The notes under the pieces are model-generated. The model saw only the letters and a program-made list of their open reading frames with translations, did no database searches and was not told the origin of the DNA. A stretch of 48,516 nucleotides of DNA, taken from positions 1 to 48,516 of the forward strand of contig JANMSG010001169.1 of assembly GCA_031389065.1 (NCBI GenBank), read 5' to 3'. The position numbers and the translations under genes are program-made. The stretch is from Acidobacteriota bacterium. Its GTDB lineage: Bacteria > Acidobacteriota > Blastocatellia > UBA7656. The number at the start of each line of letters is the position of its first letter. Positions within the stretch are counted from its first letter, which is position 1. Of this stretch, positions 2,696 through 37,888 are shown piece by piece.

Positions 2696-3199
2696 ATGGG
2701 TTTATTCGATAAAATGTTCGGTCGCGGAGCTTCTGACGATGAAAAGGGGCAGAAGCGATTTAACGAATTGAGTCAAAAATACGCCTCAGTTTTGAATTTT
2801 GCTGATCAGCAGCAGATACAATTTCAGAATCTTCATGTCGAAGATGATAACTTGCTCATTCGAGCGACAGCGCCATCTCAAGAGGTTGCTAATCAATTGT
2901 GGGATCAAGTCAAATTGGTCAATCCCAGCTTGGATGATATCACGCTCGACCTCAAGGTATCTGAGCAGAGGACGCAGGGTGCAGCGGTAGGCAATCAAGA
3001 ATCAAATATTGGTCAAACCTCTGCTGTGTCAACCTATACGGTGAAATCAGGCGACACCCTCTCAAAAATAAGCCAACAATTCTATGGAGATTCCAACGAG
3101 TATATGCGCATCTTTTATGCCAACCGTGACCAGTTGCGTGACCCTGACAAGATTCAGGTCGGTCAACAGTTGACGATTCCACAAGACACCGATGCGTAG
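2696..3199 (+). CDS. BON/LysM domain protein, Kbp (YgaU)-like
   Basis: N-terminus MGLFDKMFG resembles E. coli YgaU/Kbp MGLFNFVK. C-terminal LysM: YTVKSGDTLSKISQQFYGDSNEYMRIFYANRDQLRDPDKIQVGQQLTIP. SD AAGGAG lies 7 nt upstream of the ATG. Confidence 0.8.
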   Translation: MGLFDKMFGRGASDDEKGQKRFNELSQKYASVLNFADQQQIQFQNLHVEDDNLLIRATAPSQEVANQLWDQVKLVNPSLDDITLDLKVSEQRTQGAAVGNQESNIGQTSAVSTYTVKSGDTLSKISQQFYGDSNEYMRIFYANRDQLRDPDKIQVGQQLTIPQDTDA

Positions 3200-3359
3200 G
3201 TAGAAAGGCTGAACTGATAAATTCAGATAGTTGGGCTTTTGCAACAAGGTACTGGCAGGGCACTTCATAAGCGTCCGATCCAGTGTTTGAGCGTTTTATG
3301 CGCTTACTGTCAAACCCAAGACTTCGAATATCGCATAGGTTTGAGTAGAGGAGCATAAT

Positions 3360-3806
3360 ATGAAAGCTGAAAAAGGCAAAGTAAATGATGAGGCTCAGAT
3401 TCGTGAGCTAATAGATAATTGGGCAAAGGCGGTCCGCACCAAGGACATCAATGGGCTTATGTCCAACTACGCGCCGGACGTCTTATCGTTTGACGCTATT
3501 AACCCGCTTCAATACATCGGGTTGGATGCGGCTAGGAAACGTGCAGAAGAGTGGCTCTCTGCGTTCCAAGGTCCTGTCGGATACGAGATGCGCGACCTGA
3601 GTATTGCTACGGGCGATGACGTGGCGTTTTGTCACAGCCTCAACCGGGTCAGCGGAACCAAGACAGACGGAGGTGAAATCGATATGTGGGTGCGTGCGAC
3701 CATTTGCTACCGCAAGGTTGACGGCCAGTGGATGGTCACGCATGAGCATATCTCTGTGCCCTTTGATATGGAGAGCGGCAAAGCGTCGTTTGATCTCAAG
3801 CCATAG
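3360..3806 (+). CDS. SnoaL-like / NTF2-fold protein (DUF4440, ketosteroid-isomerase-like)
   Basis: 148-aa ORF. Pattern EAQIRELIDNWAKAVRTKDINGLMSNYAPDV...WRVTHEH-like (WMVTHEHIS) is typical of DUF4440/SnoaL_3 proteins. Confidence 0.65.
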   Translation: MKAEKGKVNDEAQIRELIDNWAKAVRTKDINGLMSNYAPDVLSFDAINPLQYIGLDAARKRAEEWLSAFQGPVGYEMRDLSIATGDDVAFCHSLNRVSGTKTDGGEIDMWVRATICYRKVDGQWMVTHEHISVPFDMESGKASFDLKP

Positions 3807-3993
3807 CAATTTACAGATGCCTTGTGCTGACGCCGCCTCGCTTCCATCAAGCAACTTGCTAAACGTCAAATTATCACCGAACACATCTATCGCCCACAAT
3901 CAGCAGCGTCGTCTAACCGTTGTTGCTGATTGCAGGCGATAGGCATTTTAATCAATTCGTCGAAGCCGTTCGTCTTTTCATTTAGCGGCAAAA

Positions 3994-4629
3994 CTATTTT
4001 TTGTGCGCTCCGCTCAAAGCTGTCGCCGCGCCCAGCCCTATATAAACGCTGCCGGCAAAATAACGCTGCGCACGTAAAAACTTTAAATTTCCACGCAGCC
4101 AGTTGCCTATGCCTCCTGCCGCCAGCGCATAGATAGAATCGCTCAAGGTTCCAAGACAAACCAGAATTGTGCCCAACAAAACGATCTGCATGGCTACTGC
4201 GCCTCGCGCCGCGTCAATAAATTGCGGCAAAAACGCGAAAAAGAAGAGAGCCGTTTTCGGGTTCAGCACATTCACAACAACACCTTGATAAAACACACGG
4301 CTCAAGCTGACTACCTGAATTTCCCGCGTCGCTTGATCCTCTTCTTTCGTCAGCAAAGTTTTTACGCCAAGATAAATTAAATAAGCCGCTCCCGCATATT
4401 TCACGACATTGAAGGCTAACGCAGACGACAATAACAAAGTCGACAAACCGAAAGCGGCGGCGGCAATATGAAAGAGCGTACCAACCTGCACACCTATACT
4501 TGAAACGATTCCCGCCCTGCGTCCTTGTTGAATGCTGCGGGCAATGATGTACAGGGTGTTGGGTCCCGGCATCAAGACGAGAACCAGTGTGGCGGCGATA
4601 AATAAAGATAACTTTGACCAGTCCAGCAT
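3994..4629 (-). CDS. LysE/RhtB family amino-acid exporter
   Basis: 211 aa with about 6 TM segments. N-terminal PGPNTLYIIARSIQQGRRAG and central NPKTALFFFAFLPQF are LysE-family signatures. Confidence 0.85.
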   Translation of the reverse strand: MLDWSKLSLFIAATLVLVLMPGPNTLYIIARSIQQGRRAGIVSSIGVQVGTLFHIAAAAFGLSTLLLSSALAFNVVKYAGAAYLIYLGVKTLLTKEEDQATREIQVVSLSRVFYQGVVVNVLNPKTALFFFAFLPQFIDAARGAVAMQIVLLGTILVCLGTLSDSIYALAAGGIGNWLRGNLKFLRAQRYFAGSVYIGLGAATALSGAHKK

Positions 4630-4640
4630 ATTTCCCCTTC

Positions 4641-5255
4641 CTACTTATTCGTATCTGATGCGATTGTAATTTCCCCATGCGTTTTTTTCAGCATGTTAAC
4701 CAGCGATGCACCTAAATTCTCCAAAATCTCTTTCATTCTTTCATCGGTCATATTTTCGTTGTCGCCAGAAAATTTATCCTCAGCAAAAGAGACCGCGACC
4801 TCTTTAGGCAAAACATTCACTCCCACACTCGTGAGCACGTCACGCAGATGCGCCAGCGAGCGAATGCCGCCGAAAGAGCCTGGCGAAGCCGTCATCATCG
4901 CTGCAATCTTTCCAGGGAAAACCTCACTCCTTGGGTATTGATCGCTTTGCCGCGAAGCCCAATCAATGACGTTTTTCAGCGCCGCAGGAAGCGAGCCGTT
5001 ATATTCCGGCGAAGCGATCAACAAGCCGTCGTGGAGAGTTAAGAGTTCCTGAAATTTGAGCGCGTTTTCATCAAAGCCAATCCTATCGTGGTCATCGGGG
5101 TTATAGATCGGCATCGGGTAATCACGCAAATCAACAAGGGTTACCTCTGCGCCCGCTTTTTCCGCGCCTTTTATTGCGGTTTTTAAAACTCGTTTGCTTA
5201 AAGAATGCTCTCGCAAGCTGCCTGCGAAAGCTAAAATTCTCGGTATTTTTGTCAT
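4641..5255 (-). CDS. NADPH-dependent FMN reductase family oxidoreductase
   Basis: ILAFAGSLREHSLSKRV, SPEYNGSLPAALKNVIDWASR and GGIRSLAHLRDVL are typical of the FMN_red family. 11-nt gap to the LysE gene. Confidence 0.85.
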   Translation of the reverse strand: MTKIPRILAFAGSLREHSLSKRVLKTAIKGAEKAGAEVTLVDLRDYPMPIYNPDDHDRIGFDENALKFQELLTLHDGLLIASPEYNGSLPAALKNVIDWASRQSDQYPRSEVFPGKIAAMMTASPGSFGGIRSLAHLRDVLTSVGVNVLPKEVAVSFAEDKFSGDNENMTDERMKEILENLGASLVNMLKKTHGEITIASDTNK

Positions 5256-5354
5256 CTGTTTCTGATTCTTCTGATTTTATAAAACTCAAATTAAATAATG
5301 AATCGCAAAACTCTCTACCGACGGTTTGACTTTGCGCCGGAAGCTTTCGTCGTT

Positions 5355-5834
5355 TCATCCTTCGTGAGCTTGCCGCGTTTTCATAAGCAGCGCGATCAGT
5401 TCTTCAAGCTCTACTTTACTTAAGCCGCCAAATGCTGCGTGATTAGCTTTCTCAACCGGCTCATCAAGCAGCATCAGTAATTTCAACCCTTTCTCAGTGA
5501 TTCGGCAGTACACGCAGCGACGGTCATTCGGGCGAATTTCGCGCCAAACCAACCCTTTCGATTCCAAACGGTCAACCATGCGTGTGATACCGGGTGTGCG
5601 TTCAATCATGCGCTCGGCAATCGTCAATGTCGGCAGACCTTCGGGTTCCGCGCCGCGCAAAATCCGCAACACATTGTATTGCTGTCCGGTAAGATCAAAC
5701 GGCGCGCAAACCTTTTCAAAAAGAGTTCTGACACGGTCAGCCGTGGCCAACAAATTAACATAAGCGGTCTGGGCTGACGACGGTTGCGAGCCCTTCTTCC
5801 CTCGAGGTCGCGATATTTTTCTGTTTGTAGTCAT
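5355..5834 (-). CDS. MarR family transcriptional regulator
   Basis: 159 aa. Winged-helix region LTGQQYNVLRILRGAEPEGLPTLTIAERMIERTPGITRMVDRLESKGLVWR. First gene of the marR-FMN reductase-LysE minus-strand cluster. Confidence 0.85.
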   Translation of the reverse strand: MTTNRKISRPRGKKGSQPSSAQTAYVNLLATADRVRTLFEKVCAPFDLTGQQYNVLRILRGAEPEGLPTLTIAERMIERTPGITRMVDRLESKGLVWREIRPNDRRCVYCRITEKGLKLLMLLDEPVEKANHAAFGGLSKVELEELIALLMKTRQAHEG

Positions 5835-6210
5835 TAAGAGATGTTTAACAGGTCAATAGTTGATACGTCAAGTAATATATAAAAATAAGATCTAACAAAT
5901 TGGCAGAGCAGAATCATGCCAGGCATCTAGCGGTTCTAACAAATTGCCTTGGCGGATCCTTGTAGTAGGATTGTCGTTGGAGTAACGAGCGGAGCGGGCG
6001 GTGGCAAACAATCTATGAGCTAACAGCAAGTGACAATCAGGCTATTCCGCTTTATAAGACCAGTGACGCTTTTCCAAGCTTGCTGAACAATAACTCTTCA
6101 ACGAAATCCGTCAAATGACCATCAGGCAGCGCAAGCGACGATTGGTGAACTCGCAGGTCAACTCGGAACCCTTGGACGCCGATTCGCCACCGCTTTGCCG
6201 ATTCAACAAC

Positions 6211-6615
6211 TTATATGCGCCACTGACCCGAAAACACCTTACTTTCACCTGGCACGACGATCACCGAGTCGGCAAACGCATTCCCGAAGCGCTCAACTAC
6301 TAAATCTTCATCACTCATCAGTTCTATTTCGTACTCTGCGATCTCAACGTCGTGCTTGGTATTGTTAGTAAACTCGCAAAATATCCACAGACTAAAGTGT
6401 GGGCCGAACTGAAAGGCAGGCCCCGCGTTATACTCCCTGGTCCAGACCACCTGTCCATCAGGATCTAACAGAATAAGGGTATATCCGGCGATACTGAGAG
6501 TGGGCGGGCCTTCTGGTTTTGCGTTCGAGTCAGGGGGGCTTGGTTTGATAAATCTCCGCAATGCGGTCATCAGTCCGCTCATTGCTTTAGGCAACTCGAT
6601 TTGCTTTTCCATCAC
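6211..6615 (-). CDS. hypothetical protein, translationally coupled to bactofilin
   Basis: 134-aa ORF. Its ATG overlaps the bactofilin stop by 4 nt (6612-6615). I recognise no family. Confidence 0.5.
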   Translation of the reverse strand: MMEKQIELPKAMSGLMTALRRFIKPSPPDSNAKPEGPPTLSIAGYTLILLDPDGQVVWTREYNAGPAFQFGPHFSLWIFCEFTNNTKHDVEIAEYEIELMSDEDLVVERFGNAFADSVIVVPGESKVFSGQWRI

Positions 6616-7031
6616 GCACTCTTGACCTTGCTCTTGTCTTCGCTGATGTCCGGATGACTCTCTTCTATCAGTTGACGGCTCGCTTCTTTTGCCATGCCAA
6701 TGGTGCCATTGAGTACGGCACCCTCTTCAACCAACAAAACAGGGGTTGTCAGATCACCCGAGACTCTGCCGGTTTTGTAAATCTCAATTCTTGATGTAGC
6801 GGTAACATTGCCATTGAGGGTTCCACGAATAATACAAACGCCTACATTCACTTGAGCTTCAACTCGACCCCGCTCCTGAATCAGAAGTACGCCGGTCTCT
6901 GAGATCAGCTTACCAGTGACTTTGCCTTCTACTTGGAGTTCCTCGGCAAAGAGAATATCGCCTGCCACCTCTACTCCTATGCTCAGGAAACCGAGAGCAG
7001 GAGCATCGCCATTATTTTTGGTTAGTTTCAT
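6612..7031 (-). CDS. bactofilin family polymer-forming cytoskeletal protein
   Basis: Beta-helical repeat pattern (VEVAGDILFAEELQVEGKVTGKLISETGVLLIQERGRVEAQVNVGVCIIRGTLNGNVTATSRIEIYKTGRVSGDLTTPVLLVEEGAVLNGTIGM). Start set at ATG 7031 (MKLTKN) with GGAG 8 nt upstream. The ORF is open to 7115. Confidence 0.8.
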   Translation of the reverse strand: MKLTKNNGDAPALGFLSIGVEVAGDILFAEELQVEGKVTGKLISETGVLLIQERGRVEAQVNVGVCIIRGTLNGNVTATSRIEIYKTGRVSGDLTTPVLLVEEGAVLNGTIGMAKEASRQLIEESHPDISEDKSKVKSA

Positions 7032-7289
7032 GAATGAATCTCCGCACCTATGTGAATTTACCCGACGGACAGAATTGTCATAAAGGTGAGGGAGCGCCGA
7101 GTCTATGTGGGACAAGAATTACGCTTATGTTTGAGGAAAAGTAATAAGATTATTTTGATTTTCGTTTGTCTGGACAGCTAGCTTTATACGTGCTTTGATG
7201 CTGGAAGTCAAGCTTCACCAAACTGTGATGGCTGGGCTTGAAAACTCTATAGGAGTCAAGTAAGGGAATAGCCGAATGGTAGCGCTTGG

Positions 7290-7371
7290 TGCAATTAATA
7301 GTGAGACTCCAGCAAAGATGAAAATCTATTGTCAAACCAATAGCAGAAACCGAGTCTCACTATTAATTGCA
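7290..7371. repeat. perfect 20-bp inverted repeat with a 42-nt loop containing a 6-bp sub-hairpin
   Basis: 7290-7309 TGCAATTAATAGTGAGACTC is the exact reverse complement of 7352-7371. The loop contains CTATTG...CAATAG. Confidence 0.9.
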
Positions 7372-7451
7372 TCCAGTTGCGCCCCTCGGTGAATTGATTC
7401 ATCGGGCATTTGCCGTCGTCTCAAGAAGAAATAGTTCTTTGAAATAAAAGG

Positions 7452-7492
7452 AAAAATAAAAAGGCTCTGCTGTTTTGGAAGCAGAGCCTTTT
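7452..7492 (-). terminator. rho-independent terminator of groEL
   Basis: Stem GGCTCTGC (7463-7470) / GCAGAGCC (7481-7488), extendable with A-U pairs. On the minus strand it is followed by TTTTTATTTTT. It lies 31 nt after the groEL stop. Confidence 0.7.
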
Positions 7493-7523
7493 CGTTACGA
7501 ACCGTGTATGCGCGACAGCTAAA

Positions 7524-9155
<1,632 letters not shown>

Positions 9156-9179
9156 TTACTCCTTTATCTCTGTAAAAAT

Positions 9180-9500
9180 CTATTTGCCTTTGCCTTTGGC
9201 TTTTTCTGCTTTTTCAATCACGCCAAGGATGTCATCCTCGCGCATAATCAAATATTCTTGACCGTCGAGCTTGACTTCCGTACCCGCGTATTTGCCAAAA
9301 AGCACTCTGTCGCCTTCTTGAACATCAAGGTTGACATACTCCCCGCTGTCGAGTTTCTTGCCTTTGCCTACGGCAATGACTTCACCCTCTTGCGGTTTCT
9401 CTCTAGCGGCATCGGGAATGATGATACTGCCACGTACCTGCTCTTGCTCTTCGATTCTTTTGATGATAACTCTATCATTTAGTGGTCTAATGTTTGCCAT
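9180..9500 (-). CDS. groES: co-chaperonin GroES (Cpn10)
   Basis: [20 protein letters not shown]...[20 protein letters not shown]. 30 nt upstream of groEL. Lys-rich C-terminal tail. Confidence 0.97.
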
Positions 9501-10946: not shown

Positions 10947-11720
10947 TTAATCGCCGCTCGTCTTTACGACGGAACGTTCTTTGGAAGGGATTGTGACTTC
11001 GCCGAAAAGAATGTCTGTCAAGCCAAGCCCTTCGCGGCGGTCTATGTCGCGCTCAATCGTCTGAATCTTCACATTATGCTGCTGAATCTGCGTAGCTATC
11101 TTAACCAAATCAGCCGAGCGCATATCTTTGAGTTGCGATTGGAAATTCACCAACTGCGCTTTCATATCCTCTTTTTGCAGCTGTTCGTTTTTGGCTATCT
11201 CTGCGCTCACTTCGGTCATCAAGTCGGCGCGAATCTGTTCAAGTTGTTCTCTGCTGAGTGTCACAGACACAGCCTCTGTACCGCCTGTTGTTGCGCCTTT
11301 AATGTTCACACCCGCTGGTGCGTCTTTGCGCAATAAATCTGCGTGATATGAAACTCCGTCTTTACCAATCTTGATGTCCGTCCCAAGCACTGCAAGTATA
11401 AGCATAGCCGCTGCGACTGCGCCCAGTCCTTTTGCCCAAAGCGGCATAATCGTGAACAACTCTTTGAGCAGAGCCAGCGCCGATTTGCGAGGTTGTGCGG
11501 CGGTTTCTGCAACCAATCGCACATTCGGCACTTCGTCAAACTGCCATTGTTGCAAAGACTCGCGCACGCCCTCGAAAGCCGAAAGCTCTTGTCTGCATGA
11601 AGCGCACTCAATCAAATGCGACTCGAATCGCAGGCTCTCTTGCGGTGCTGTTTCGCCATAAAGGTAGGTGACGAGCAACTCGTGCATCTTGCAATTTGGG
11701 GTATTATTTTGTTGAGTCAT
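10947..11720 (-). CDS. anti-sigma factor (zf-HC2 type) with one TM helix and an extracytoplasmic coiled coil
   Basis: N-terminal H-x3-C-x2-C motif (HLIECASCRQEL). TM helix LGAVAAAMLILAVLG. Located downstream of the ECF sigma gene. Confidence 0.7.
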   Translation of the reverse strand: MTQQNNTPNCKMHELLVTYLYGETAPQESLRFESHLIECASCRQELSAFEGVRESLQQWQFDEVPNVRLVAETAAQPRKSALALLKELFTIMPLWAKGLGAVAAAMLILAVLGTDIKIGKDGVSYHADLLRKDAPAGVNIKGATTGGTEAVSVTLSREQLEQIRADLMTEVSAEIAKNEQLQKEDMKAQLVNFQSQLKDMRSADLVKIATQIQQHNVKIQTIERDIDRREGLGLTDILFGEVTIPSKERSVVKTSGD

Positions 11721-11829
11721 GATTTCACTTATCTTCCTTTAATTACGGCCAAAGCGGCGGCCCTTACATTTTTCATGAGCCGCGCAAATTGTATAAAGTC
11801 TCCTGAACCGCTTTCCCACAAAAGATGCT

Positions 11830-12441
11830 TCATACAGCTTCGCGTAAATGTGCGAGCCGTTTTTTCAATTCCGTCAACCCTGTATACATTCTGGTTTTCA
11901 CGGTTGACAGTGGTATGCTCAGAATTTCTGCAATTTCGTTAAACTTCAAACCCTCGTATTCCTTCATGATGATAACCTGCCGCATTTCCGCCGGCAGACC
12001 TTGCAAAGCGCGTCGAACATGAATGGTGATCTGCTCCTGCTGGATGTTGCTGCTCAGGTCGTGTTCGTCTGCGGCTAGTTCAAATCCATGTATCTCGTAC
12101 TCCTCTTCAATCGAAAGCATGAATTTGTTGCGGCCTCTGAGCTTGGTGTTACAGATATTCAGAGCAATTCTATAAATCCAGGATGAAAACTTGGCGTCGC
12201 CTCTGAATTTCGACAGATTGCGATACGCCGATAAAAAAGTCTCTTGAGTCGCGTCTTTCGCTTCTTCGTCGCGCCCCAGCATTCTGAGCGTCAAGCCATA
12301 GATATGACGCTCCCAGCGGCGCACAAGAACATTGAATGCTTCCGGCTCTCCGCCTAACGTGCGCTCAATAATTTGCGTATCATTTAAATCCAAGTTACAC
12401 TCGCGCCACCACTGAAAATTGAATCCCCATCCGTACAGCAT
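11830..12441 (-). CDS. ECF-type RNA polymerase sigma-70 family factor
   Basis: Region 2 (FNVLVRRWERHIYGLTLRMLGRDEEAKDATQETFLSAYRNL) and region 4 (EYEGLKFNEIAEILSIPLSTVKTRMYTGL). The true start may be internal to the ORF. Confidence 0.85.
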   Translation of the reverse strand: MLYGWGFNFQWWRECNLDLNDTQIIERTLGGEPEAFNVLVRRWERHIYGLTLRMLGRDEEAKDATQETFLSAYRNLSKFRGDAKFSSWIYRIALNICNTKLRGRNKFMLSIEEEYEIHGFELAADEHDLSSNIQQEQITIHVRRALQGLPAEMRQVIIMKEYEGLKFNEIAEILSIPLSTVKTRMYTGLTELKKRLAHLREAV

Positions 12442-15045: not shown

Positions 15046-16983
15046 ATGAAAAAAATTCTTGCCTTAGCGTTTTGTTTAGCCTTTATACACTCGGCATTTT
15101 CGATTTTCGCCCAAAGTGCGACCACGCCGCAGAGTAACACGACAAAGCCGATCCATTGGCTTGAGCAGGTTACCTCGCGCGCCGATTTTGACAGGCTTTC
15201 GCGCACCTATTATCGAGGTCGTTTTTACGCCCTGCCGCACATGATGTTCGTCATAGACCGGCGCGCAAAAGACCGTGTCTATTATGTGAACTCAAAAGCC
15301 TATGCGTTTCATAAAGATTTTGTGAACGCGGAATATTTATCACTTGAGCGCGGCAAAGTTTTTTACGAAAACAACTATGCAAATAAAGACAGAAGATTTT
15401 TTCTCGGCACCATTTCATATCAAACAACACTTGATAAATTCACTTTTGAATTTTGGGAAGGCGACAGATTATCGAAAGAATTGCTGACCCAGTGCTATGA
15501 CGCTTTGCGCAAAAGTTTTTTCACAGAGATTTTTTTCAAGCCCAACTCTTTAATTCAAGAAGAAGTTGCAAAAGATATGAACAACGCTTCGGTGAATCGC
15601 CTGGCTGTTATCACCGCAAGCGACCTTGCGAGCAATCAACAATATCAACCGCTCAACCTGGGCGCCAATGTAGGGCAACTTCGCATACTCGAACGCCTGA
15701 CGCCAGAGACAGTGATTGACCGCAATCAAATCGTCATCTTCAAAGAAGTGCCGATTCAACTGACGCCGCTTTCAGGCATTATCACGACCGAAGCCGCATC
15801 GCCGCTATCGCACGTCAATATTCTGGCGAAATCCTGGGGCATTCCGAATGCGCGAATCGCCAACGCCGATAAGCTTTTCAAAGAACTCGAAGGCAAGTAC
15901 GTCCGTCTGGAAATCAACGAGAATGAATACAAACTTCTGCCAGCCAATGCCAAAGAGGTCGAAGCGCGCAATCGTGAATTTATCAAACGCTCTGATTTAG
16001 TCACGCCACCTGCCGACCTGAGTTATGAAAAGCTCACAAATTTGCAAGATCAACGAAAGGCAGACGCAAAACGATTCGGCGCAAAAGCCGCGAATTTAGG
16101 CGAGATGATTAACGCCCACAATCCTAAAATAGTTGTGCCGAAAGGCTTTTCGATTCCCTTTATTCATTACAAAACTTTCTTGATCATCAACAAACTCGAA
16201 GATAAAATCGCCAACGCTGTTGAAGAAGACCGCTTCGTTCACGATCCAGTTTATCGCAAGAAGCGACTCGCAGAAATTCGCCAATGGATTCAACAAGGTA
16301 GGCTCGAAGTTGGCTTTAAAAAAATGCTTGAAGGCAAGGCTTTTGATTTAGGTTTACGCAAAGGCTTGTTTGTGCGAAGTTCCACGAATGCCGAAGACTT
16401 ACCAAATTTTAGTGGCGCGGGACTTTATACAACGGTGCCGAATGTTCGCAATTATGAGCAGCTTTACGAAGCGGTGAAAACCGTCTGGGCTTCGCTTTGG
16501 AATTATGAAGCATACGAAGCGCGCGACAGTTTCGGTATGAATCATTTCGGCGCTTATCCTTCGGTGTTGGTTCAAGAGGGAATTGATGCCGAAAGCGCCG
16601 GTGTGGCGATTACAACAGACCCATTCAATCGCGCCAACAAAGGCGCTGTTTACATCAACGCCAAACGCGGGCTTGGCATGAAAGTCGTCGAAGGTCGCAG
16701 AATTGCAGAGCAAGCTCTGTACACGCCAAGCTCAAATTCAATCAAAGTTTTAACGCGCTCGGATGAAGATACAATGTTGAAGTTCGATGAAAACGGCGGT
16801 GTGAAAGAATTGAAAATTGAACAGCATCGCGCTGTGTTGACAGATGACATGATACGACGGTTGGCTCGCGCGGCGCTGCAAATTAAACGCATCTTCGGCG
16901 GGCGCGATCAAGACATCGAATGGGTTTATGCAAAAGGCCAGCTGTACATCGTTCAATCGCGACCTTATGTTGAAAATAATTAG
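15046..16983 (+). CDS. PEP-utilising-enzyme family phosphotransferase: N-terminal signal peptide, unknown N-domain, swivel phospho-His domain, C-terminal PPDK_N ATP-grasp domain
   Basis: Signal-like MKKILALAFCLAFIHSAFSIFAQ. Swivel motif LSGIITTEAASPLSHVNILAKSWGIPNA (His256, nt 15811-15813). PPDK_N motifs FGAKAANLGEM, VRSSTNAEDLPNFSGAG and DIEWVYAKGQLYIVQSRP. Confidence 0.75.
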   Translation: MKKILALAFCLAFIHSAFSIFAQSATTPQSNTTKPIHWLEQVTSRADFDRLSRTYYRGRFYALPHMMFVIDRRAKDRVYYVNSKAYAFHKDFVNAEYLSLERGKVFYENNYANKDRRFFLGTISYQTTLDKFTFEFWEGDRLSKELLTQCYDALRKSFFTEIFFKPNSLIQEEVAKDMNNASVNRLAVITASDLASNQQYQPLNLGANVGQLRILERLTPETVIDRNQIVIFKEVPIQLTPLSGIITTEAASPLSHVNILAKSWGIPNARIANADKLFKELEGKYVRLEINENEYKLLPANAKEVEARNREFIKRSDLVTPPADLSYEKLTNLQDQRKADAKRFGAKAANLGEMINAHNPKIVVPKGFSIPFIHYKTFLIINKLEDKIANAVEEDRFVHDPVYRKKRLAEIRQWIQQGRLEVGFKKMLEGKAFDLGLRKGLFVRSSTNAEDLPNFSGAGLYTTVPNVRNYEQLYEAVKTVWASLWNYEAYEARDSFGMNHFGAYPSVLVQEGIDAESAGVAITTDPFNRANKGAVYINAKRGLGMKVVEGRRIAEQALYTPSSNSIKVLTRSDEDTMLKFDENGGVKELKIEQHRAVLTDDMIRRLARAALQIKRIFGGRDQDIEWVYAKGQLYIVQSRPYVENN

Positions 16984-17010
16984 CTGACGAAACATTTTCA
17001 ATCTCTCAAA

Positions 17011-20000
17011 ATGAAAACAGGCACAAAACGACAAGTTCATTCAAGAGTTTTTCGATTCGCTCTCGGATCATTCATTTTCGTCATTACAAGCTACGTTGCC
17101 ATTTACAGCAGCGCGCATCAAACGCCTGTGCCTCAAGTTAACACAGCTTCGGTGATAGGGTTTGTGCAAGACGACAAAGGCGCGCCTTTAGAGAAAGTCA
17201 GCGTAACGATTTCGTCGCCAAATTTCTCTGCCTCTGCGTTCACTACGGCTGATGGCAAATTCGAGTTTAAGAATCTGGCGCCAGCGAAATATTTCATCAC
17301 CGCACAAGCCGCCCGCTTCCGAAAAACGCAAACGGCCATCACCATCACCAAGCCCGATGATATCGTGCCGCCCATCACGATTAAGCTCGCGGCATCTTCG
17401 CTACACGTAGCCGTGTATGACGCAAACAATCAATCGTTAGGTGGCGTGATGGTTTCGCTCTATTCGCAAGACAGCGCAACCTCCGGCAATCCCACAGCGC
17501 GAACCGTCACAGATAAAAATGGCGACGCGTATTTCGGGAGGCTTGCGCCCAGCTCTTACACGCTCACGGCGGTCTTGCGCGGCTATGACGAATACCGGAA
17601 TCAGGTTTTTATTTCCTCTGATATCACGACAGACTTTGCGCTACAACTTCTGGTTGCGCCGGTTATTCCAATTAACACGAAAGCCATCGCGCGTTACAGC
17701 ATTCCAAATCTCCCTGCAAAAAATGTTCGCGCGATTTTTCAAGACAGCGAAGGCTGGATGTGGTTCGGCACAGATAAAGGGCTGGCGCGATTCAACGGCG
17801 CGGAGTTCAAATCATCAGCAACCACAGGCTCCGCTTATGCGCGTTTGGCAAACGAAGACGTGCGCTCGATTGCAGAAGACCAAAACGGCCGCATATGGAT
17901 TGCCACACCAGGCGGCGTGAAGCGAATCACCAAAGAAGGCGTGGAAGACGGACAATGGCTGAGTGGCGTTGAGGCACGAAACATCGCTGTTGATGCGGGC
18001 GGCAACGTGTGGGTTGCGACGGCATCGGGCGTTTTCAAATTCGACGGCAAAGATTTAGAAGCGTTTGATGAATCTCGCGGTCTGCCATCAAACGATGTAA
18101 GAGCAATCGCCATTGATAAAAGCGGCAAGGTTTGGATTGCTACAGCAAAAGGCGTGGCCATCCTCGCAGATAATAAAATCCATTTGCTTGAGCCGAAACG
18201 CGACGTTTCCACAGACAATGCCGAACCCTTATCTGTTCAACCAAAACCTGCATCACAGACTGCTACGCAAAAAAAATCAACAGCTTCGCAAACGGTGACA
18301 AATACGGCTCAACAACCTTCGCAGGCTTCTACAGCGAACCCAATGGCGCTTGCAAAAGTAAATGATTTGGACGATGTTCAAAACCTATTTATAGACAAGG
18401 CTGGCGGCGTTTGGCTGGCAACCAACAAAGGCGCGATTTTTATTGAGGCAAACCATACGAACACTTTTGATTTATCGCAGGCGCAAGTAGCCAATGGCTT
18501 GTCCATTCGCGCCATCAGTCAAGACATCGCAGGGCGTATGTGGTTTGCGCTCACAGAGGGCGGCGCGCTGATTTACGATCCCTCAACTCGCGACTCGCAA
18601 CGCATCAGCCTGTTAGAGCAGGATCACATTGCGGCAATCTCAAACGAGCGCGAAGGGTATTTATGGTTCGCTACAGACAATGGCGCAGTCTATGCAGACT
18701 TCTATAGCTTTATCCTTTTCACGACCAGTCGCGGTCTCTCCGACAATGACGTGCATGCGGTTATTGAAGACTCCAGCGCAACAACCGCACAGGCTCATGG
18801 CAACCTCTGGTGCGTCACCTCAACAGGCGCATCGCGTATGCAGGATGAGCGATTCGTTCCTATCGAACGATTCCGCACCAACATCCATATACGCGGCGTT
18901 GCTTTCGACAACACGGGCGCGGCTTGGGTGGCAACAGACCAAGGCGCAATTAAATTCAGCGGAAAAACTTTAGCGCAATTCAGCGAAGGCAACGGCTTGG
19001 CTTCAAACAACATTCGTTATGTGGCGAGCCTTGCAAAAGGCGCGGCGATGGTCTTCGCTACCTCGAAAGGCGCAAGCATCTTTGAGAACGGAGTGTTTCG
19101 CAAGCTCGATGGTTTGGACGGCTACGACGCGCGACAGATATTTGAAGACACGGACGGGCGTTTGTGGTTTGCTACCTCTCGCGGTGTGATGGTTTACAAT
19201 CGGAAAACGGATGTGGCAAAGCTTATTGATACCTCGCGTGGACTCATTGATAATGACACTCGTTGGATCACTCGATACAACGGTGAATTGTTGATAGCCA
19301 CACGCGCCGGTGTGCAAATTTATAATGAGCGACAACAAAGCGCCTCGTCGTTTGACAGCGAACCGGCGAACACAATTTTTGTTGATAGAGACAATTTTTT
19401 GTGGGTAGGGACGGATAACGGGCAGCTCAAAAAAATCGCTGCCGTTCAAAGTCACATTGTTTCGAGCATCTATTCGGGCGAGATTCATTCGCTGACTGCC
19501 AATCGAATCAATTCCATCTCCGAAGACAACGATGGTCATATTTGGATCGCTACGGATAAAGGCGTAGTTCGCCATACACCGATCCGCACAACTCCTTCGA
19601 TTCAAGTGTCGCTCAAAGTCGAAGGTCGTTCGGAAGCGGATTCAGGCTCAGGCAGGGTTGAACTTCCCAACGGACGACAACGCGTTACCTTTCGTCTGAC
19701 AGGCGTAAGCATGAGCAAGCCCGTGCAATATCTTTATCGTATCAACCCGGAAGGCGGAAACGAACGTTGGGAATTGCTGCCTGTTCAAACGGGGCTTGAG
19801 CGGGAGATCCCGTTTTTTGAATTCACTGAAGGCGTGAACACTTTTGAAGTCATGGCGCTCAATCGTGATTTGTATGGAGGGCTGGCGCCGAGCGCTGCGA
19901 TTACCATTTATGTAAACCCGCCGTTTTATAAGAAGTGGTGGTTTTATTTATTCGGGCTTCTCGTCGCAGGATCGGCTACCACAGCCTTTTTCGTGGTTCG

Positions 20001-21201
20001 CAAGAAAAATCAGCGCGAGTATGTTCTGCCGAAAGAGTTGCGCGAGTTCGTGCCTATCGAACCCAATCCCTACATTGTCGGCAATCCCATACGCACGGAA
20101 AAAATGTTCTACGGACGAGAAGACGATTTTCGTTACGTGCAAACCAAGCTCGAAGGCGCGTCGCAAGGCGTGGTCATCGTCTTTTGCGGCGAGCGCAGAG
20201 TCGGCAAGAGTTCGATTCTCTTTCAAGTGATGAACGGTAGATTGGGCGAGCGCTTCGTTCCGGTCTTCGTCGATATGCAAGAGATGGTCATCACTTCGGA
20301 CGCCGAGTTCTTCGCGCGCATCTCACGTTTGATCGTCGAATCGTTAGCGCGGAAAAACATCAAAGTCACTGCGCCTCAATTTCACGAAGGAAATCCTTAT
20401 CATATCTTCTTAGATTTTCTCGATGAAGTGTTGGCGGCGATAGAAGACCGAACGCTTTTGATATTGATGGACGAGTACGAGTTGATGGAATCGAAGGTAG
20501 ATGAAGGAAAGATTTCGCAAGAATTTTTTACCTTCTTAGCCGGCTTGATGGACAACAGAGAGCGTCTGGCGATTATCTTCACAGGTTCGCGGCGCCTCGA
20601 GGAGCGCGATAAAAAATATTGGCGCGACCTGTTGCGCCGCTCGCTGTTTCGCAAGGTCGGTTTCTTATCCGGCAAAGACACCCTGCGCCTCATCACAGAC
20701 CCTGTCGAAGGTCGCGTAGTTTACGGGCGCGGCGCGATTGAAGCGATTTGCAGATTGACGGCGGGACAGCCCTTTTATACGCAGGTCACCTGTCAAAACA
20801 TTGTTGATTATATGAACGAACACGAGCAGAACTATATTACGCTCGCAGACCTGCAGCATGTCACTGCAGACATCACAGACAACCCTCTGCCGCAGATGAT
20901 TTACACCTGGGACGCGCTTTCGGATGATGAGAAATTGGTGATGTCTTTGCTCGCTGATGCTCTGCCTGACGGTAACGATTTCGCCACCGCATACGATTTG
21001 CGAGTGGTTGTGAAAGCGAACGAATATCCTGTGAATTTATCTGAAACAACCATTCGCATGACGCTTGAAGAGATGTTCCGCCGCGAGTTGCTGGATAAAA
21101 ATGCCAGCGAGGGTTTCCGAATCAAAATAGATTTGTTCCGATTATGGATTCGCCGCTCACATTCCATCTGGCAAGTAGTCAAAGAAGTGCGAACGCTTTA
21201 A
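17011..21201 (+). CDS. transmembrane sensor: 2x CarboxypepD_reg + about 14 Reg_prop propeller blades + Y_Y_Y domain + TM helix + cytoplasmic Arch/ORC-type AAA NTPase with wHTH
   Basis: N-terminal anchor FALGSFIFVITSYVAIY. Repeated blade motif (e.g. VRAIFQDSEGWMWFGTDKGLARF, VRSIAEDQNGRIWIATPGGV). Y_Y_Y region around VQYLYRINPEGGNERWE. TM helix WWFYLFGLLVAGSATTAFFVV (aa 976-996). NPYIVGNPI...FYGREDDF (aa 1019 onward). Walker A GERRVGKSS (nt 20188-20214). Walker B LLILMDEYE. Confidence 0.8.
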   Translation: MKTGTKRQVHSRVFRFALGSFIFVITSYVAIYSSAHQTPVPQVNTASVIGFVQDDKGAPLEKVSVTISSPNFSASAFTTADGKFEFKNLAPAKYFITAQAARFRKTQTAITITKPDDIVPPITIKLAASSLHVAVYDANNQSLGGVMVSLYSQDSATSGNPTARTVTDKNGDAYFGRLAPSSYTLTAVLRGYDEYRNQVFISSDITTDFALQLLVAPVIPINTKAIARYSIPNLPAKNVRAIFQDSEGWMWFGTDKGLARFNGAEFKSSATTGSAYARLANEDVRSIAEDQNGRIWIATPGGVKRITKEGVEDGQWLSGVEARNIAVDAGGNVWVATASGVFKFDGKDLEAFDESRGLPSNDVRAIAIDKSGKVWIATAKGVAILADNKIHLLEPKRDVSTDNAEPLSVQPKPASQTATQKKSTASQTVTNTAQQPSQASTANPMALAKVNDLDDVQNLFIDKAGGVWLATNKGAIFIEANHTNTFDLSQAQVANGLSIRAISQDIAGRMWFALTEGGALIYDPSTRDSQRISLLEQDHIAAISNEREGYLWFATDNGAVYADFYSFILFTTSRGLSDNDVHAVIEDSSATTAQAHGNLWCVTSTGASRMQDERFVPIERFRTNIHIRGVAFDNTGAAWVATDQGAIKFSGKTLAQFSEGNGLASNNIRYVASLAKGAAMVFATSKGASIFENGVFRKLDGLDGYDARQIFEDTDGRLWFATSRGVMVYNRKTDVAKLIDTSRGLIDNDTRWITRYNGELLIATRAGVQIYNERQQSASSFDSEPANTIFVDRDNFLWVGTDNGQLKKIAAVQSHIVSSIYSGEIHSLTANRINSISEDNDGHIWIATDKGVVRHTPIRTTPSIQVSLKVEGRSEADSGSGRVELPNGRQRVTFRLTGVSMSKPVQYLYRINPEGGNERWELLPVQTGLEREIPFFEFTEGVNTFEVMALNRDLYGGLAPSAAITIYVNPPFYKKWWFYLFGLLVAGSATTAFFVVRKKNQREYVLPKELREFVPIEPNPYIVGNPIRTEKMFYGREDDFRYVQTKLEGASQGVVIVFCGERRVGKSSILFQVMNGRLGERFVPVFVDMQEMVITSDAEFFARISRLIVESLARKNIKVTAPQFHEGNPYHIFLDFLDEVLAAIEDRTLLILMDEYELMESKVDEGKISQEFFTFLAGLMDNRERLAIIFTGSRRLEERDKKYWRDLLRRSLFRKVGFLSGKDTLRLITDPVEGRVVYGRGAIEAICRLTAGQPFYTQVTCQNIVDYMNEHEQNYITLADLQHVTADITDNPLPQMIYTWDALSDDEKLVMSLLADALPDGNDFATAYDLRVVVKANEYPVNLSETTIRMTLEEMFRRELLDKNASEGFRIKIDLFRLWIRRSHSIWQVVKEVRTL

Positions 21202-21257
21202 AGTATATAAACTCAGGTAGAAATGACATCAAAGAAATTGAGATAGTAAAAAAATAG

Positions 21258-23198
21258 ATGCATCGTAATCCTTATCTAAACCGTGTTGCTATTAAAGACC
21301 CGGCGCAGTTCTTCGGACGCGCGCGCGAAGTCTCAAAAATATTTTCCCGCATCGGCGCGTCGCGTCCGCAATCTATTTCCGTTGTTGGCGAACGGCGCAT
21401 AGGAAAATCGTCGCTTCTTTACTACCTCAACCATCCGCAAATTCGCGCCAAGTATCTCGATAAATCCGAAGATTACATATTCGTCTTCATAGACCTTCAG
21501 CAAAAACGCAAACTCAGGCTCACAGAGTTTTTTCAGGAGTTGTTTGCCTTAATTGCCAAAGAGATAAACGATGAGAAAATTACCTTGCTTGAACCAAGTT
21601 TCGATTCCTTGCGCGGCTTGCTCGAAAATTTTAGAAGCGAAGGGCGCAAACTCATCGTCCTGTTCGATGAATTCGATGTCATCACAACCAACCGCGCCTT
21701 CGATCTGGAGTTCTACTCATTCCTGCGCTCGATTGCAAATAACTACGACGTGGCGTATGTGACAAGTTCTGCGCGTGACTTGCAAGAGCTCTGCTACACG
21801 CAACTTATAGCCGATTCCCCTTTCTTTAATATCTTTACAAATGTTTTTTTGCGGGCTTTTTCGCGCAAAGAAGCTCTCGATTTAATTGTGGTTCCGTCAG
21901 TTCAAGAGGGCTTGCCGCTGGAAAATTATACGCGGCGAATTATGGAACTTGCCGGTCACTTTCCTTACTTTTTGCAAATCGCTTGCTCGGCTTACTTCGA
22001 TCATCTTTTGGAAAACGACGGCAAACTCAATCGTGAAGAGGTCGAAGACAATTTTCTCGATGAAGCCAAAGGACAATTCAGGTTCATCTGGGACAAAATG
22101 AGCGAAGGGCAACGCCGCGCCATTCGCAGCTTCGTTGAAAGTAACAAAGCTGAAAAAGAGCAAGCACATATTTTTGAAGATCTAAAACGCGCCGGTTATT
22201 TTCTCGAAGACGAGCGCGGGACTCGTTTGTTCTCTACCAAATTCTCTTCCGTGATTTCGCGCCCGCGAATGATTACTACGGAATTGCGTGACACAGACCG
22301 CGCCGCCATGGCTGTACATGACGGTAAGACGGAAAAAGTCGCTGCGCCGCCTTTGATTGAACCTCACGGACACATTGGCAGATTCGATATTCATCGTTCA
22401 TTAGGCGCGGGCGGAATGGGTGAAATTTTTGAAGCGTACGACACGGAACTTCAACGCACGGTCGCCATCAAAGTCCTGGTCTCAAAGTTTGTAGAAAATG
22501 AAACCATGAAGCAGCGGTTTTTGCGGGAAGCGCGCATGGCTTCGCAACTCAATCATCCGAATATCGCTACGATTTACGAGATCGGCGAGGCCGCTGGTAA
22601 TCCTTATATTGTTATGGAATGTGTTGAAGGCGAAACGCTCAATGACAAAATAAACAACGGCCCGATTGAGTTGAAAGATATCTTGGAAATCGGCGAGCAG
22701 ATCGCTGACGCGCTCGCCGAAGCGCACGAACACGGCGTCGTTCATCGCGACATCAAATCCGCGAACATCATGATTACGACTCGCGGAAAAGTGAAGGTGT
22801 TGGATTTCGGTTTGGCCAAACCTCTGCCTCTTTCGAGCGAGCGCAAGAATAAAACGAAGCTAACGGAATCCGGCGTGTTGCTTGGCACTGTGAGTTACAT
22901 GTCACCCGAACAAGCGACAGGGCAAGGAGATGTCTCGCATCTTTCGGATATTTTTTCGCTCGGTGTAGTGCTTTATGAAATGCTAACGGGGAGCTTGCCG
23001 TTTGAAGGCGACACTTATTTCCAAACCATTCAGGCGATAAACAAACGCACTCCGGTTTCGATAAAAAAACTTCGTAAAGACGCGCCCGCATCTTTGATTG
23101 CGATTATCGAACGTATGCTGAAAAAATCTCCGTCAGAGCGTTACCAGGCGGCATCAGAAATCGCGCGCGATTTGCGCAAAGTGGCTAGTGAAAGCTGA
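21258..23198 (+). CDS. Arch/ORC-type AAA NTPase-wHTH fused to a Hanks-type Ser/Thr protein kinase
   Basis: NPYLNRVAI...FFGRAREV. Walker A GERRIGKSS (from nt 21387). Walker B LIVLFDEFD. Kinase motifs: GAGGMGEIF, AIKVL, HRDIKSANIM (from nt 22743), DFGLAK, SPEQ. 56 nt downstream of the previous gene. Confidence 0.85.
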   Translation: MHRNPYLNRVAIKDPAQFFGRAREVSKIFSRIGASRPQSISVVGERRIGKSSLLYYLNHPQIRAKYLDKSEDYIFVFIDLQQKRKLRLTEFFQELFALIAKEINDEKITLLEPSFDSLRGLLENFRSEGRKLIVLFDEFDVITTNRAFDLEFYSFLRSIANNYDVAYVTSSARDLQELCYTQLIADSPFFNIFTNVFLRAFSRKEALDLIVVPSVQEGLPLENYTRRIMELAGHFPYFLQIACSAYFDHLLENDGKLNREEVEDNFLDEAKGQFRFIWDKMSEGQRRAIRSFVESNKAEKEQAHIFEDLKRAGYFLEDERGTRLFSTKFSSVISRPRMITTELRDTDRAAMAVHDGKTEKVAAPPLIEPHGHIGRFDIHRSLGAGGMGEIFEAYDTELQRTVAIKVLVSKFVENETMKQRFLREARMASQLNHPNIATIYEIGEAAGNPYIVMECVEGETLNDKINNGPIELKDILEIGEQIADALAEAHEHGVVHRDIKSANIMITTRGKVKVLDFGLAKPLPLSSERKNKTKLTESGVLLGTVSYMSPEQATGQGDVSHLSDIFSLGVVLYEMLTGSLPFEGDTYFQTIQAINKRTPVSIKKLRKDAPASLIAIIERMLKKSPSERYQAASEIARDLRKVASES

Positions 23199-23244: not shown

Positions 23245-23931
23245 TTATCCCTTTGGTTCTATTAAATAATCCTCGCGCTTTGTTGAACTGATTGAAATGT
23301 CATCTGCGTGGCGAGACTCACGTGTAAACATCAAAAAACCGACTCCCATAATCACCAATACGAGCAAAATGACGATGACCAAAAAGTACCAGGGAAATTG
23401 TTGCTCATTCGTAGTCGCTGTGCCGGAGCCTTCAAAAGAAAACATGACAAAAGGACCGATTACCGCGCCCATCAATCCGACTAACAGGGCGATGCGGTCG
23501 AACTGCCCTTCTTGCGGAGCCTGCACGCGCCAACCTATATAAGTGCCAGCCATCGAAGCCACCATCGCAAAAATGACGTAAAGAAAACTTTGTCCAGTGA
23601 TGGAGATGCGCCCTGCCGAATCATTGAGCCAGTTCATCGCCAGATAATTGCTGCTTCCCGCCGACACAAGCAGTAAGAGAAGCGAGTTGAGAAGGATTGT
23701 CGCCATCGCCACGATTGCCGAATCGAGGAGGCGAATCTTTTCGCTCATTAATCCGATAATAAAACCGCCGACAAGAAAGGCACCGAGCGTCAGCCCGAAA
23801 ACCAAAACGAGGAGGATGCCTTGTGGGGATTGAGTCTTTCCGAGAAGCAGATTTGCAATAAGCGAAATCGTGGCTTGAATCCCGAAGGTGAAAACAAGCC
23901 CTAAAAGCATCCATTTCATTCGATGCTTCAT
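23245..23931 (-). CDS. hypothetical polytopic membrane protein
   Basis: 228-aa ORF with about 6 hydrophobic helices. No family recognised. Convergent with the kinase gene. Confidence 0.55.
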   Translation of the reverse strand: MKHRMKWMLLGLVFTFGIQATISLIANLLLGKTQSPQGILLVLVFGLTLGAFLVGGFIIGLMSEKIRLLDSAIVAMATILLNSLLLLLVSAGSSNYLAMNWLNDSAGRISITGQSFLYVIFAMVASMAGTYIGWRVQAPQEGQFDRIALLVGLMGAVIGPFVMFSFEGSGTATTNEQQFPWYFLVIVILLVLVIMGVGFLMFTRESRHADDISISSTKREDYLIEPKG

Positions 23932-37747: not shown

Positions 37748-37888
37748 AAGCAGTAGGCAGTAAGCAGTAAGCAGTAGGCAGTTGAAATAGCAGGCAATCG
37801 AAAGAGAAGATAGATAATTGAGTAAACAGCAAGCGATATTTTACCCCTCTCTCGCTTACTGCCTACTGCTTACTGCTTACTGCTTACT
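37748..37888. repeat. inverted heptamer-array element B
   Basis: Left arm 37748-37782, 71-nt spacer, right arm 37854-37888. The right arm overlaps the GT2 stop codon (37884-37886). The left arm ends 16 nt upstream of the M28 ATG. Confidence 0.9.

Follow-up and report, generated by a model that had tools for sequence, protein, structure and literature searches.

The window analysed here is the whole 48,516-nucleotide stretch of DNA introduced above, and its closest relatives are metagenome-assembled genomes (MAGs) of Blastocatellia (Acidobacteriota). It carries three co-directional open reading frames (ORFs), here called g1, g2 and g3, separated by two short gaps (Table 1). The initial annotation had described this layout, and the ORF coordinates and a direct reading of both gaps agree with it. 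A hairpin scan likewise found no terminator-like hairpin on the + strand in either gap, as had been claimed, but this is weak evidence since the counts of promoter- and terminator-like sites did not exceed those in shuffled sequence. The orthologous g2-g3 gap in locus L001 is 17 nucleotides. The second and third genes encode a membrane protein and a soluble kinase that share related nucleoside triphosphatase (NTPase) modules, and we report here that this g2-g3 pair is a genuine signalling module, found widely and so far all but undescribed.

A membrane protein and a soluble kinase with paralogous NTPase modules

The NTPase module of g3 matches the nSTAND2 family PF20702 with 228.5 bits against a cut-off of 24 (E 1.2e-67, profile positions 1-269 of 279), and the motif SPFFNIF is invariant in the alignment of its family. 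The Hanks-type kinase domain that follows has all its catalytic motifs intact (GAGGMG383, AIK403, HRDIKSAN496, DFG516 and SPE549), so the fusion of an NTPase module to a Hanks kinase, proposed on first inspection, is borne out. A hydropathy scan found no transmembrane segment in g3. Its orthologues form more than 120 clusters at 73-90% identity.

The product of g2 begins with a hydrophobic segment, either a signal peptide or a signal anchor, which is also present in its full-length relatives. Two CarboxypepD_reg domains and a Reg_prop beta-propeller region follow, the latter broken in the translation by a low-complexity insert rich in Q, T and S (about residues 395-450), and a single transmembrane helix separates this large extracytoplasmic part from the cytoplasmic NTPase module. 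These domains had all been named initially and stand; the Y_Y_Y domain placed next to the membrane at the same time is not called by Pfam in g2. The corresponding segment is 35% identical (E 1e-15) to a stretch of the homologue P0408 that carries PF07495 Y_Y_Y, and this homology points to a Y_Y_Y-like Ig domain.

Profile matches to the g2 module are sub-threshold or generic (AAA_22, AAA_14, ATPase_2), and against PF20702 the module scores 19 bits, below the cut-off of 24, in a partial match (E 9e-4). Apart from this and the Y_Y_Y domain, profile searches upheld almost all of the domain calls. Sequence searches of PDB with either NTPase module returned nothing meaningful, which made structure prediction and Foldseek necessary. 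In the AlphaFold2 model of the g2 module, built with 52 homologues, a predicted local distance difference test score (pLDDT) of 92.4 and a predicted template-modelling score of 0.87 accompany an AAA+ base, a helical lid and a winged helix. Foldseek gives ORC1/Cdc6 proteins and 2qen, an Arch_ATPase of Pyrococcus, as its best PDB matches (E about 1e-11 to 1e-10, template-modelling scores up to 0.56/0.62). STAND NTPases, as Leipe et al. are said to have defined them in 2004, reportedly combine a P-loop core carrying Walker A and B motifs with a helical domain and a winged helix, and use nucleotide-dependent oligomerisation as a switch; as modelled, the g2 module has each part of this architecture. 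The Arch-ATPase/ORC-Cdc6-like STAND type that had been recognised in both genes is retained. Judged by sequence, the g2 module is a sister subfamily of nSTAND2 and not a member of PF20702.

The initial annotation had called the two modules paralogous from their NPY, Walker A, Walker B and winged-helix features, and direct comparison agrees. They are 25% identical over 305 residues by BLASTP (E 7e-20), and hhalign aligns their profiles over 328 columns (99.6% probability, E 6e-24). Their paralogy is full-length, from the N-terminal NPY...F.GR motif through the winged helix, with the common forms GERR[VI]GKSS for Walker A and hhhhDE[YF] for Walker B. The Walker A lysine and the Walker B aspartate and glutamate are invariant or nearly so across both subfamilies, and by these motifs both NTPases look catalytically competent.

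The g2 module belongs to a large family, with 7289 clusters at 50% identity reaching E<=1e-3 and 1183 reaching E<=1e-30. Among the best 150 representatives the commonest layout is an NTPase followed by a transmembrane helix and an ectodomain, about 730 residues in all; the module also lies behind a propeller/Y_Y_Y ectodomain as in g2, behind 7-10 transmembrane helices or, rarely, in soluble proteins. No HisKA/HATPase_c, receiver or AraC output domain was detected in g2, g3 or the neighbouring genes.

Table 1. Positions of the three genes and of their features in the window (aa, amino acids; nt, nucleotides; AF2, AlphaFold2)
Feature	Position	Strand	Basis and remarks
g1	15046-16983	+	ORF, 645 aa
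g1 His256, likely phosphohistidine swivel domain, SPLSH motif	15811-15813	+	weak PF00391 match
g1 ATP-grasp PPDK_N domain	16072-16971	+	E 3.9e-55; C-terminal
g1-g2 spacer	16984-17010	+	27 nt, read directly
g2	17011-21201	+	ORF, 1396 aa; proposed core sensor partner
g2 N-terminal hydrophobic segment	17047-17112	+	aa 13-34, hydropathy scan
g2 two CarboxypepD_reg (transthyretin-like) domains, extracytoplasmic	17152-17625	+	PF13620, E 1.5e-20, two stretches
g2 Reg_prop beta-propeller region	17716-19560	+	PF07494, E 1e-44
g2 putative Y_Y_Y-like Ig domain	19591-19935	+	~115 aa, just outside the membrane; homology to P0408 stretch
g2 single transmembrane helix	19939-19998	+	aa 977-996, WFYLFGLLVAGSATTAFFVV; hydropathy scan
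g2 cytoplasmic NTPase module (NPY motif, AAA+ base, lid, winged helix)	20062-21198	+	380 aa; AAA_22/AAA_14/ATPase_2, AF2, Foldseek
g2 Walker A	20188-20211	+	GERRVGKS, aa 1060; motif scan
g2 Walker B	20455-20475	+	LLILMDE, aa 1149; motif scan
g2-g3 spacer	21202-21257	+	56 nt, read directly
g3	21258-23198	+	ORF, 646 aa; proposed core output partner
g3 nSTAND2 NTPase module with winged helix	21258-22292	+	aa 1-345; PF20702
g3 Walker A	21387-21410	+	GERRIGKS, aa 44; motif scan
g3 Walker B	21651-21671	+	LIVLFDE, aa 132; motif scan
g3 Hanks-type kinase domain	22386-23153	+	aa 377-632; PF00069, E 2.8e-54; NCBIfam PknB-like domain match

Linkage across phyla and exchange of sensors and outputs

Synteny of the g2-g3 pair in other genomes had been proposed as a check able to refute the system. 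One genome per GTDB species was scanned, the best 80 of 502 confirmed loci were analysed from the g2 side, and representatives and loci were searched locally with phmmer and hmmsearch. A gene was classed as g3-type if its nSTAND2 score exceeded its g2-type module score; such genes usually also carry a kinase. Among propeller-type loci with enough sequence, 40 of 49 have a g3-type gene following downstream on the same strand; so do 18 of 19 loci with non-propeller architectures from other phyla, the remaining one having it upstream. The pair is thus syntenic in 58/68 informative loci, including at least six other phyla with different flanking genes; outside Blastocatellia it occurs in Calditrichota, Gemmatimonadota (Gemmatimonadales), Ca. 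Glassbacteria, Vicinamibacterales, Spirochaetota and the FCB group. In the converse search, g3-type modules served as seeds for a metagenome scan. Of the 17 loci with 4 kb or more on each side, 11 have a g2-type module no farther than 5 kb away, as do 42 of 48 when all informative loci of that scan are counted. Neither set of counts refutes the system. The genes around the pair are entirely different from one phylum to another, so shared descent of gene order is not enough by itself to account for this linkage. Within Blastocatellia, the orthologues are 73-90% identical and stand in stable chromosomal synteny.

Tandem arrays of g2-type and g3-type modules, lineage-specific expansions of the pair, were seen in L119, L142, L146 (in the order G2-G3-G2-G3-G2) and L164. 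Nine contigs with clear orthologues of Blastocatellia type (L005, L011, L028, L034, L037, L041, L049, L051 and L056) are titled 'uncultured Clostridia bacterium', and L067, whose gene order is that of the Gemmatimonadales loci, is titled 'archaeon'; these titles are probably MAG mislabels.

The adjacency might simply be left over from an ancient tandem duplication of the NTPase module, with g2 acting as a solo membrane NTPase/winged-helix regulator and g3 as a separately regulated kinase. The paralogy itself would be expected under this explanation, as would the orphan genes of both the g2 and the g3 type that were also found, but we regard it as very unlikely indeed: the two subfamilies are only about 23-25% identical and yet stay adjacent in Spirochaetota, Calditrichota and Acidobacteriota while all surroundings and fused domains have changed, and one protein holds both modules in a single chain. 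This protein, the 751-residue metagenomic representative P0250, has a g3-type nSTAND2 module at residues 3-360 directly followed by a g2-type module at residues 363-751, and is either a genuine fusion of the two partners or the product of faulty assembly or gene calling.

The domains attached to the two modules are exchanged between lineages (Table 2). Propeller, TPR, PEGA, FGE-sulfatase and 7-10-transmembrane sensors alternate on g2-type proteins; g3-type proteins carry a kinase at either end, a nucleotide cyclase, or both; and a kinase-less nSTAND2 'adaptor' is often added to the pair. A transmembrane-like segment outside the module is present in 99 of 106 complete g2-type ORFs, compared with 6 of 145 g3-type ORFs. 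The kinase precedes nSTAND2 in some proteins and follows it in others, which argues for the NTPase module, and not the geometry of a linker, as the coupling element. NTPase subfamilies that stay constant while inputs and outputs are exchanged are the signature of a signal-transduction core.

Table 2. Loci in which the receptor or output domains of the pair differ from those of g2 and g3
Locus	Lineage	Receptor gene	Genes between	Output gene
L069	Gemmatimonadales	TPR + g2-type NTPase	ThuA-like gene	Zn-ribbon + kinase + nSTAND2, kinase N-terminal
L070	Calditrichia	NTPase-transmembrane helix-ectodomain	beta-barrel-like protein; kinase-less nSTAND2	kinase + Guanylate_cyc + nSTAND2
L085	Spirochaetales	PEGA receptor	kinase-less nSTAND2	cyclase + nSTAND2, no kinase
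L086		FGE-sulfatase receptor	kinase-less nSTAND2	cyclase + nSTAND2, no kinase
L087	FCB group	PEGA receptor	kinase-less nSTAND2	cyclase + nSTAND2, no kinase

The division into membrane and soluble partners, together with the diversity of the ectodomains, supports g2 as the input. The linkage and this division would also fit if the two proteins interacted in reverse or as scaffold and client, with g3 phosphorylating g2 or g2 merely anchoring g3, and with the NTPases forming a platform for assembly and not a switch gated by ligand. The adaptors that lack a kinase point to scaffolds of several subunits, and Hanks kinases commonly phosphorylate partner proteins encoded nearby. We nevertheless consider such an arrangement improbable, because large ectodomains of such diversity are hard to explain unless they supply input, and because the output can be a cyclase, which has no protein substrate.

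The upstream ATP-grasp gene and the genomic surroundings

The initial annotation had counted g1 as the first gene of a three-gene system and described it as an exported phosphotransferase using phosphoenolpyruvate (PEP). The PPDK_N domain and a signal-peptide-like N-terminus, a feature conserved in the orthologues, are indeed present, but no match to a PEP/pyruvate-binding TIM barrel or to a rifampin-binding domain was found in g1, and strictly speaking g1 does not count as a PEP-utilising enzyme. Foldseek relates its ATP-grasp domain to rifampin phosphotransferase 5hv3 (E 6e-20, 28% identity) and also to PEP synthase 2ols. The match to the phosphohistidine mobile domain PF00391 is weak (16.7 bits against a cut-off of 23.1, E 0.005) and the AlphaFold2 model is poor there; His256 of the SPLSH motif is invariant in 40 orthologues. 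The model as a whole is moderate (pLDDT 69.5), the N-terminal half has no domain assignment, and all NCBIfam equivalog cut-offs (598-1700 bits) are missed widely by scores of 81-169 bits. Like rifampin phosphotransferase and PEP synthase, g1 combines an ATP-grasp domain with a histidine resembling that of their swivel domain, but its domain order is permuted, it has neither the PEP/pyruvate nor the rifampin-binding domain, and it starts with the signal-peptide-like segment. Its sequence is apparently that of an exported ATP-dependent phosphotransferase, and its orthologues form more than 120 clusters in Blastocatellia. Export of an enzyme that uses ATP is hard to square with the lack of ATP outside the cytoplasm.

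An exported g1 could belong functionally with the pair, for example by making or modifying the ligand of g2. It is co-directional with g2 and 27 nucleotides upstream with no hairpin between, an extracytoplasmic location is predicted for g1 as for the g2 ectodomain, and 15 of 40 Blastocatellia loci have a g1 orthologue no more than 10 kb upstream of g2, 8 of them within about 150 nucleotides. A three-gene system is still distinctly unlikely. No g1 lies within that distance in the other 25 Blastocatellia loci or in any of 12 loci of other phyla, and an ATP-grasp enzyme outside the cytoplasm would have no obvious ATP source. A GGDEF diguanylate cyclase gene of 390-400 codons, absent from the window, frequently separates the g1 and g2 orthologues (L001 4425-5597, L013 8533-9735), and the 1.4-2.5-kb g1-g2 gaps of other Blastocatellia loci probably hold the same gene. 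The FeoAB, poly(A)/CCA polymerase and tRNA synthetase flanks are syntenic in L001 too, so within Blastocatellia the adjacency of g1 is explained by descent. On these grounds g1 was rejected as a core component; it is a lineage-specific neighbour and not part of the conserved core.

A divergent FAD oxidoreductase gene lies 5' of g1. On the 3' side of g3 there is a convergent ORF of 228 codons (23245-23931, - strand), for which no Pfam or PADLOC match was found, and then FeoB. Unannotated convergent ORFs of similar size occupy the same position in L001 (248 residues) and L004 (226 residues), a likeness of position and size that extends to L004 even though g2 and g1 are missing there. The other genes of the 48.5-kb contig are housekeeping genes (GroEL, Pta, an extracytoplasmic function (ECF) sigma/anti-sigma pair, poly(A)/CCA polymerase, class II tRNA synthetase, HtrA and GlpX), with no mobile or defence genes among them. 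The ECF sigma factor (Sigma70_r2/r4) and its zf-HC2 anti-sigma factor are encoded at 10947-12441 on the - strand, 3 kb upstream of the g1-g3 stretch. Two further genes relate to the cell surface: one for a family-2 glycosyltransferase with an N-terminal CarboxypepD_reg domain (37884-39800, - strand) and one for a 1029-residue protein with TIG/IPT and Lamin-tail domains (43074-46163, + strand).

Proposed mechanism and comparison with known systems

On balance, and with some reserve, we favour the reading that g2 and g3 form a two-protein transmembrane signalling module, with g1 outside it, in which a receptor NTPase recruits an NTPase-kinase. The data above establish the domain anatomy, the paralogy, the split into membrane and soluble partners, the gene linkage across phyla and the exchange of domains; physical contact between the two proteins, a direction of signalling from g2 to g3, a ligand and targets are inferred, as follows. 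The extracytoplasmic CarboxypepD_reg, double-propeller and Y_Y_Y-like domains of g2 would bind a ligand, by analogy with other Reg_prop/Y_Y_Y sensors probably a glycan or another cell-surface or environmental polymer, and the single transmembrane helix would couple this sensor to the cytoplasmic ORC/Cdc6-like (MNS/Arch_ATPase-type STAND) module. As in STAND and ORC/Cdc6 proteins, a ligand-induced rearrangement of g2 may bring the module into an ATP-bound, assembly-competent state. In this state g2 could recruit or nucleate g3 through contacts between the paralogous NTPases, in the manner of ORC/Cdc6 rings or NAIP-NLRC4. Kinase domains clustered in this way at the membrane would undergo trans-autophosphorylation and then phosphorylate targets, and hydrolysis of the nucleoside triphosphate (NTP) would reset the complex. 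In other phyla the same core may drive a nucleotide cyclase instead of, or together with, a kinase, often including a kinase-less nSTAND2 adaptor as a third component. Contact between the modules is supported by P0250 and by the hetero-multimeric ring predicted for nSTAND2 pairs (Kaur, Iyer, Burroughs, Aravind, eLife 2021, PMC8195603).

If the pairing works as proposed, it would give bacteria a modular way to turn external signals into protein phosphorylation or cyclic nucleotides, with NTP-gated assembly of paralogous STAND modules replacing phosphotransfer. It would also be a prokaryotic, non-immune counterpart of sensor/helper NLR pairs and would bear on the origin of STAND-based immune receptors. 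The family of the g2 module extends across under-studied phyla (Acidobacteriota, Gemmatimonadota, Calditrichota, Spirochaetota and FCB candidates), and public annotations hide the g2 and g3 proteins under 'protein kinase', 'AAA+ ATPase', 'PEGA domain-containing protein' or 'Bud32'.

Several observations weigh against the two-protein module. Six of the 17 unbiased g3-type loci have no g2-type gene nearby, and L004 and L093 have g3 without g2 within 8-10 kb. The g3 orthologue of L004, 77% identical, retains its downstream neighbours, and an RHS toxin cassette upstream replaces g2 and g1. A g2-like subgroup at 37-41% identity lacks a downstream g3-type gene; in one of its members, Chloracidobacterium L045, MacB/HlyD is found there instead. 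The winged helix could bind DNA rather than act only as a STAND conformational switch, and no phosphatase, FHA protein or obvious substrate is encoded beside the pair in the window. The locus sets consist mostly of MAGs, the g2-side counts come from the best 80 loci, and ORFs were scanned from stop to stop. Two relatives of the g2 module have conflict-like settings: P0388 is a soluble metagenomic protein of 1214 residues combining Pkinase, FHA and TIR_2 domains with a g2-type module, and a match on the Acinetobacter ursingii plasmid NZ_MH220285.1 (199686-200933) lies under an 'N-6 DNA methylase' annotation. These two cases mean that some branches of the wider NTPase family may serve conflict functions.

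In L004, a related Blastocatellia genome, the cassette spans 2765-9412, the position that g2 and g1 take in the window, and comprises an RHS/YD-repeat toxin gene and four small ORFs upstream of the g3 orthologue.

Such cases raise the question of whether the pair itself is a counter-invader system, in which paired STANDs sense an invader or envelope damage and the kinase or cyclase is an effector of the abortive-infection type. The two-gene operon from which nSTAND2 was defined is predicted to act against invaders; conflict systems that the group of Kaur et al. has described repeatedly contain FGE-sulfatase and PEGA domains; relatives of the g2 module occur in P0388 and on the Acinetobacter plasmid; the pairs form tandem arrays in four loci; and PADLOC matches the g3 kinase domain to the defence kinases PD-T4-6 and mad6. 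These PADLOC matches, however, span only the generic kinase domain (residues 372-645), and no defence family is matched by the NTPase module of either protein. Effectors of toxin type (HEPN, GT4, nuclease or TIR) were seen neither here nor in 12 loci inspected in detail, both NTPases look active, unlike those of the published nSTAND2 system, and the sensors are extracytoplasmic and of environmental-receptor types. In phage and plasmid collections, which are biased towards cultured taxa, neither module has a phage match and the g3 module has no plasmid match; plasmid relatives of the g2 module are found only on three Acinetobacter ursingii plasmids, at about 22% identity. Orthologues 73-90% identical in a fixed housekeeping neighbourhood across Blastocatellia are likewise not what a defence function would suggest. 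The housekeeping neighbours, the stable synteny, the restriction of PADLOC to a generic kinase and the absence of phage matches together support signalling rather than defence, which we hold to be unlikely for this pair.

Conceptually, the nearest analogues of the proposed module would be sensor/executor NLR pairs. In NAIP-NLRC4 and in plant sensor/helper NLR pairs, a ligand-bound sensor STAND nucleates a paralogous STAND that bears the output domain, and g2 and g3 would follow the same sensor-executor logic. Those proteins are cytosolic immune receptors of the NACHT and NB-ARC clades, whereas the g2-g3 pair has a membrane-tethered sensor facing outside, an MNS/Arch_ATPase-like NTPase and a kinase or cyclase as output. 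On its extracytoplasmic side g2 resembles the hybrid two-component sensors of Bacteroides, such as BT4663, which have a Reg_prop double propeller, Y_Y_Y and a transmembrane segment: the Reg_prop propellers, the putative Y_Y_Y-like Ig domain and one transmembrane helix are laid out alike, but the output of g2 is a STAND-like NTPase and not HisKA/HATPase/REC/AraC. In structure, ORC1-5/Cdc6, archaeal Orc1/Cdc6 and the archaeal Arch_ATPase PABY2304 (2qen) come closest to the g2 module, with a similar base, lid and winged helix, and ORC is a ring of paralogues; sequence identity to the module is 11-17%, and the pair has no replication context.

Single-chain regulators in which a STAND is joined to a kinase or cyclase are represented by PknK of M. 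tuberculosis and by Rv0386-type cyclases (ATPase plus HTH), which are soluble and belong to the MalT/AAA_16 clade. They share with g3 the fusion of a Hanks kinase or class III cyclase to a STAND-class NTPase, but carry their own sensor repeats in the same chain, and we know of no separate membrane receptor paralogue for them.

The nearest published system, and the only one known with paired nSTAND2 genes, is the operon from which nSTAND2 was defined, a two-gene 'counter-invader' operon of paired STAND NTPases (Kaur, Iyer, Burroughs, Aravind, eLife 2021, PMC8195603). It is a mobile operon of proteobacteria in which one of the two proteins combines degraded NTP-binding motifs with a HEPN or GT4 effector, and a toroidal hetero-multimer was predicted for the pair from conserved arginine fingers. 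The supplementary alignment and table of that paper include RMG61681.1 (Calditrichaeota), an adaptor-type member of the g2/g3 family, and list its kinase-cyclase neighbour, but not its receptor partner, with no discussion. Literature on nSTAND2/PF20702, on STAND with PEGA and cyclase or with kinase and cyclase, and on Reg_prop/Y_Y_Y with STAND gave no description of the g2-g3 system beyond this one table row; the iSTAND/vWA-MoxR systems of Kaur et al. 2020, where effectors with transmembrane and PEGA domains are mentioned, are different. The initial remark that no characterised system with such logic was known is slightly overstated in view of the paired nSTAND2 operon and its predicted ring.

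Both systems consist of two adjacent genes, each with a STAND NTPase and a winged helix of an MNS-like clade, and g3 is a strong PF20702 member. In the g2-g3 pair, however, both proteins keep Walker A GK[ST] and Walker B DE, and neither is an inactive partner; in place of HEPN or GT4, g3-type proteins bear Pkinase or Guanylate_cyc and g2-type proteins bear extracytoplasmic sensors; the locus is vertically conserved rather than mobile and sporadic; and g2 is a transmembrane receptor with a large ectodomain, a type of partner not mentioned in PMC8195603. The locus therefore departs from the nSTAND2 operon in three of its four defining features, namely the inactive partner, the toxin effector and mobility. 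Tentatively, and as a possibility that falls somewhat short of likely, the pair may represent a distinct and widespread class of bacterial transmembrane signalling, apart from histidine kinases, receptor Hanks kinases, chemoreceptors and ECF/anti-sigma systems, in which a ligand-bound receptor STAND nucleates a soluble STAND bearing a kinase or cyclase, sometimes through an adaptor STAND, in a NAIP/NLRC4-like logic at the membrane.

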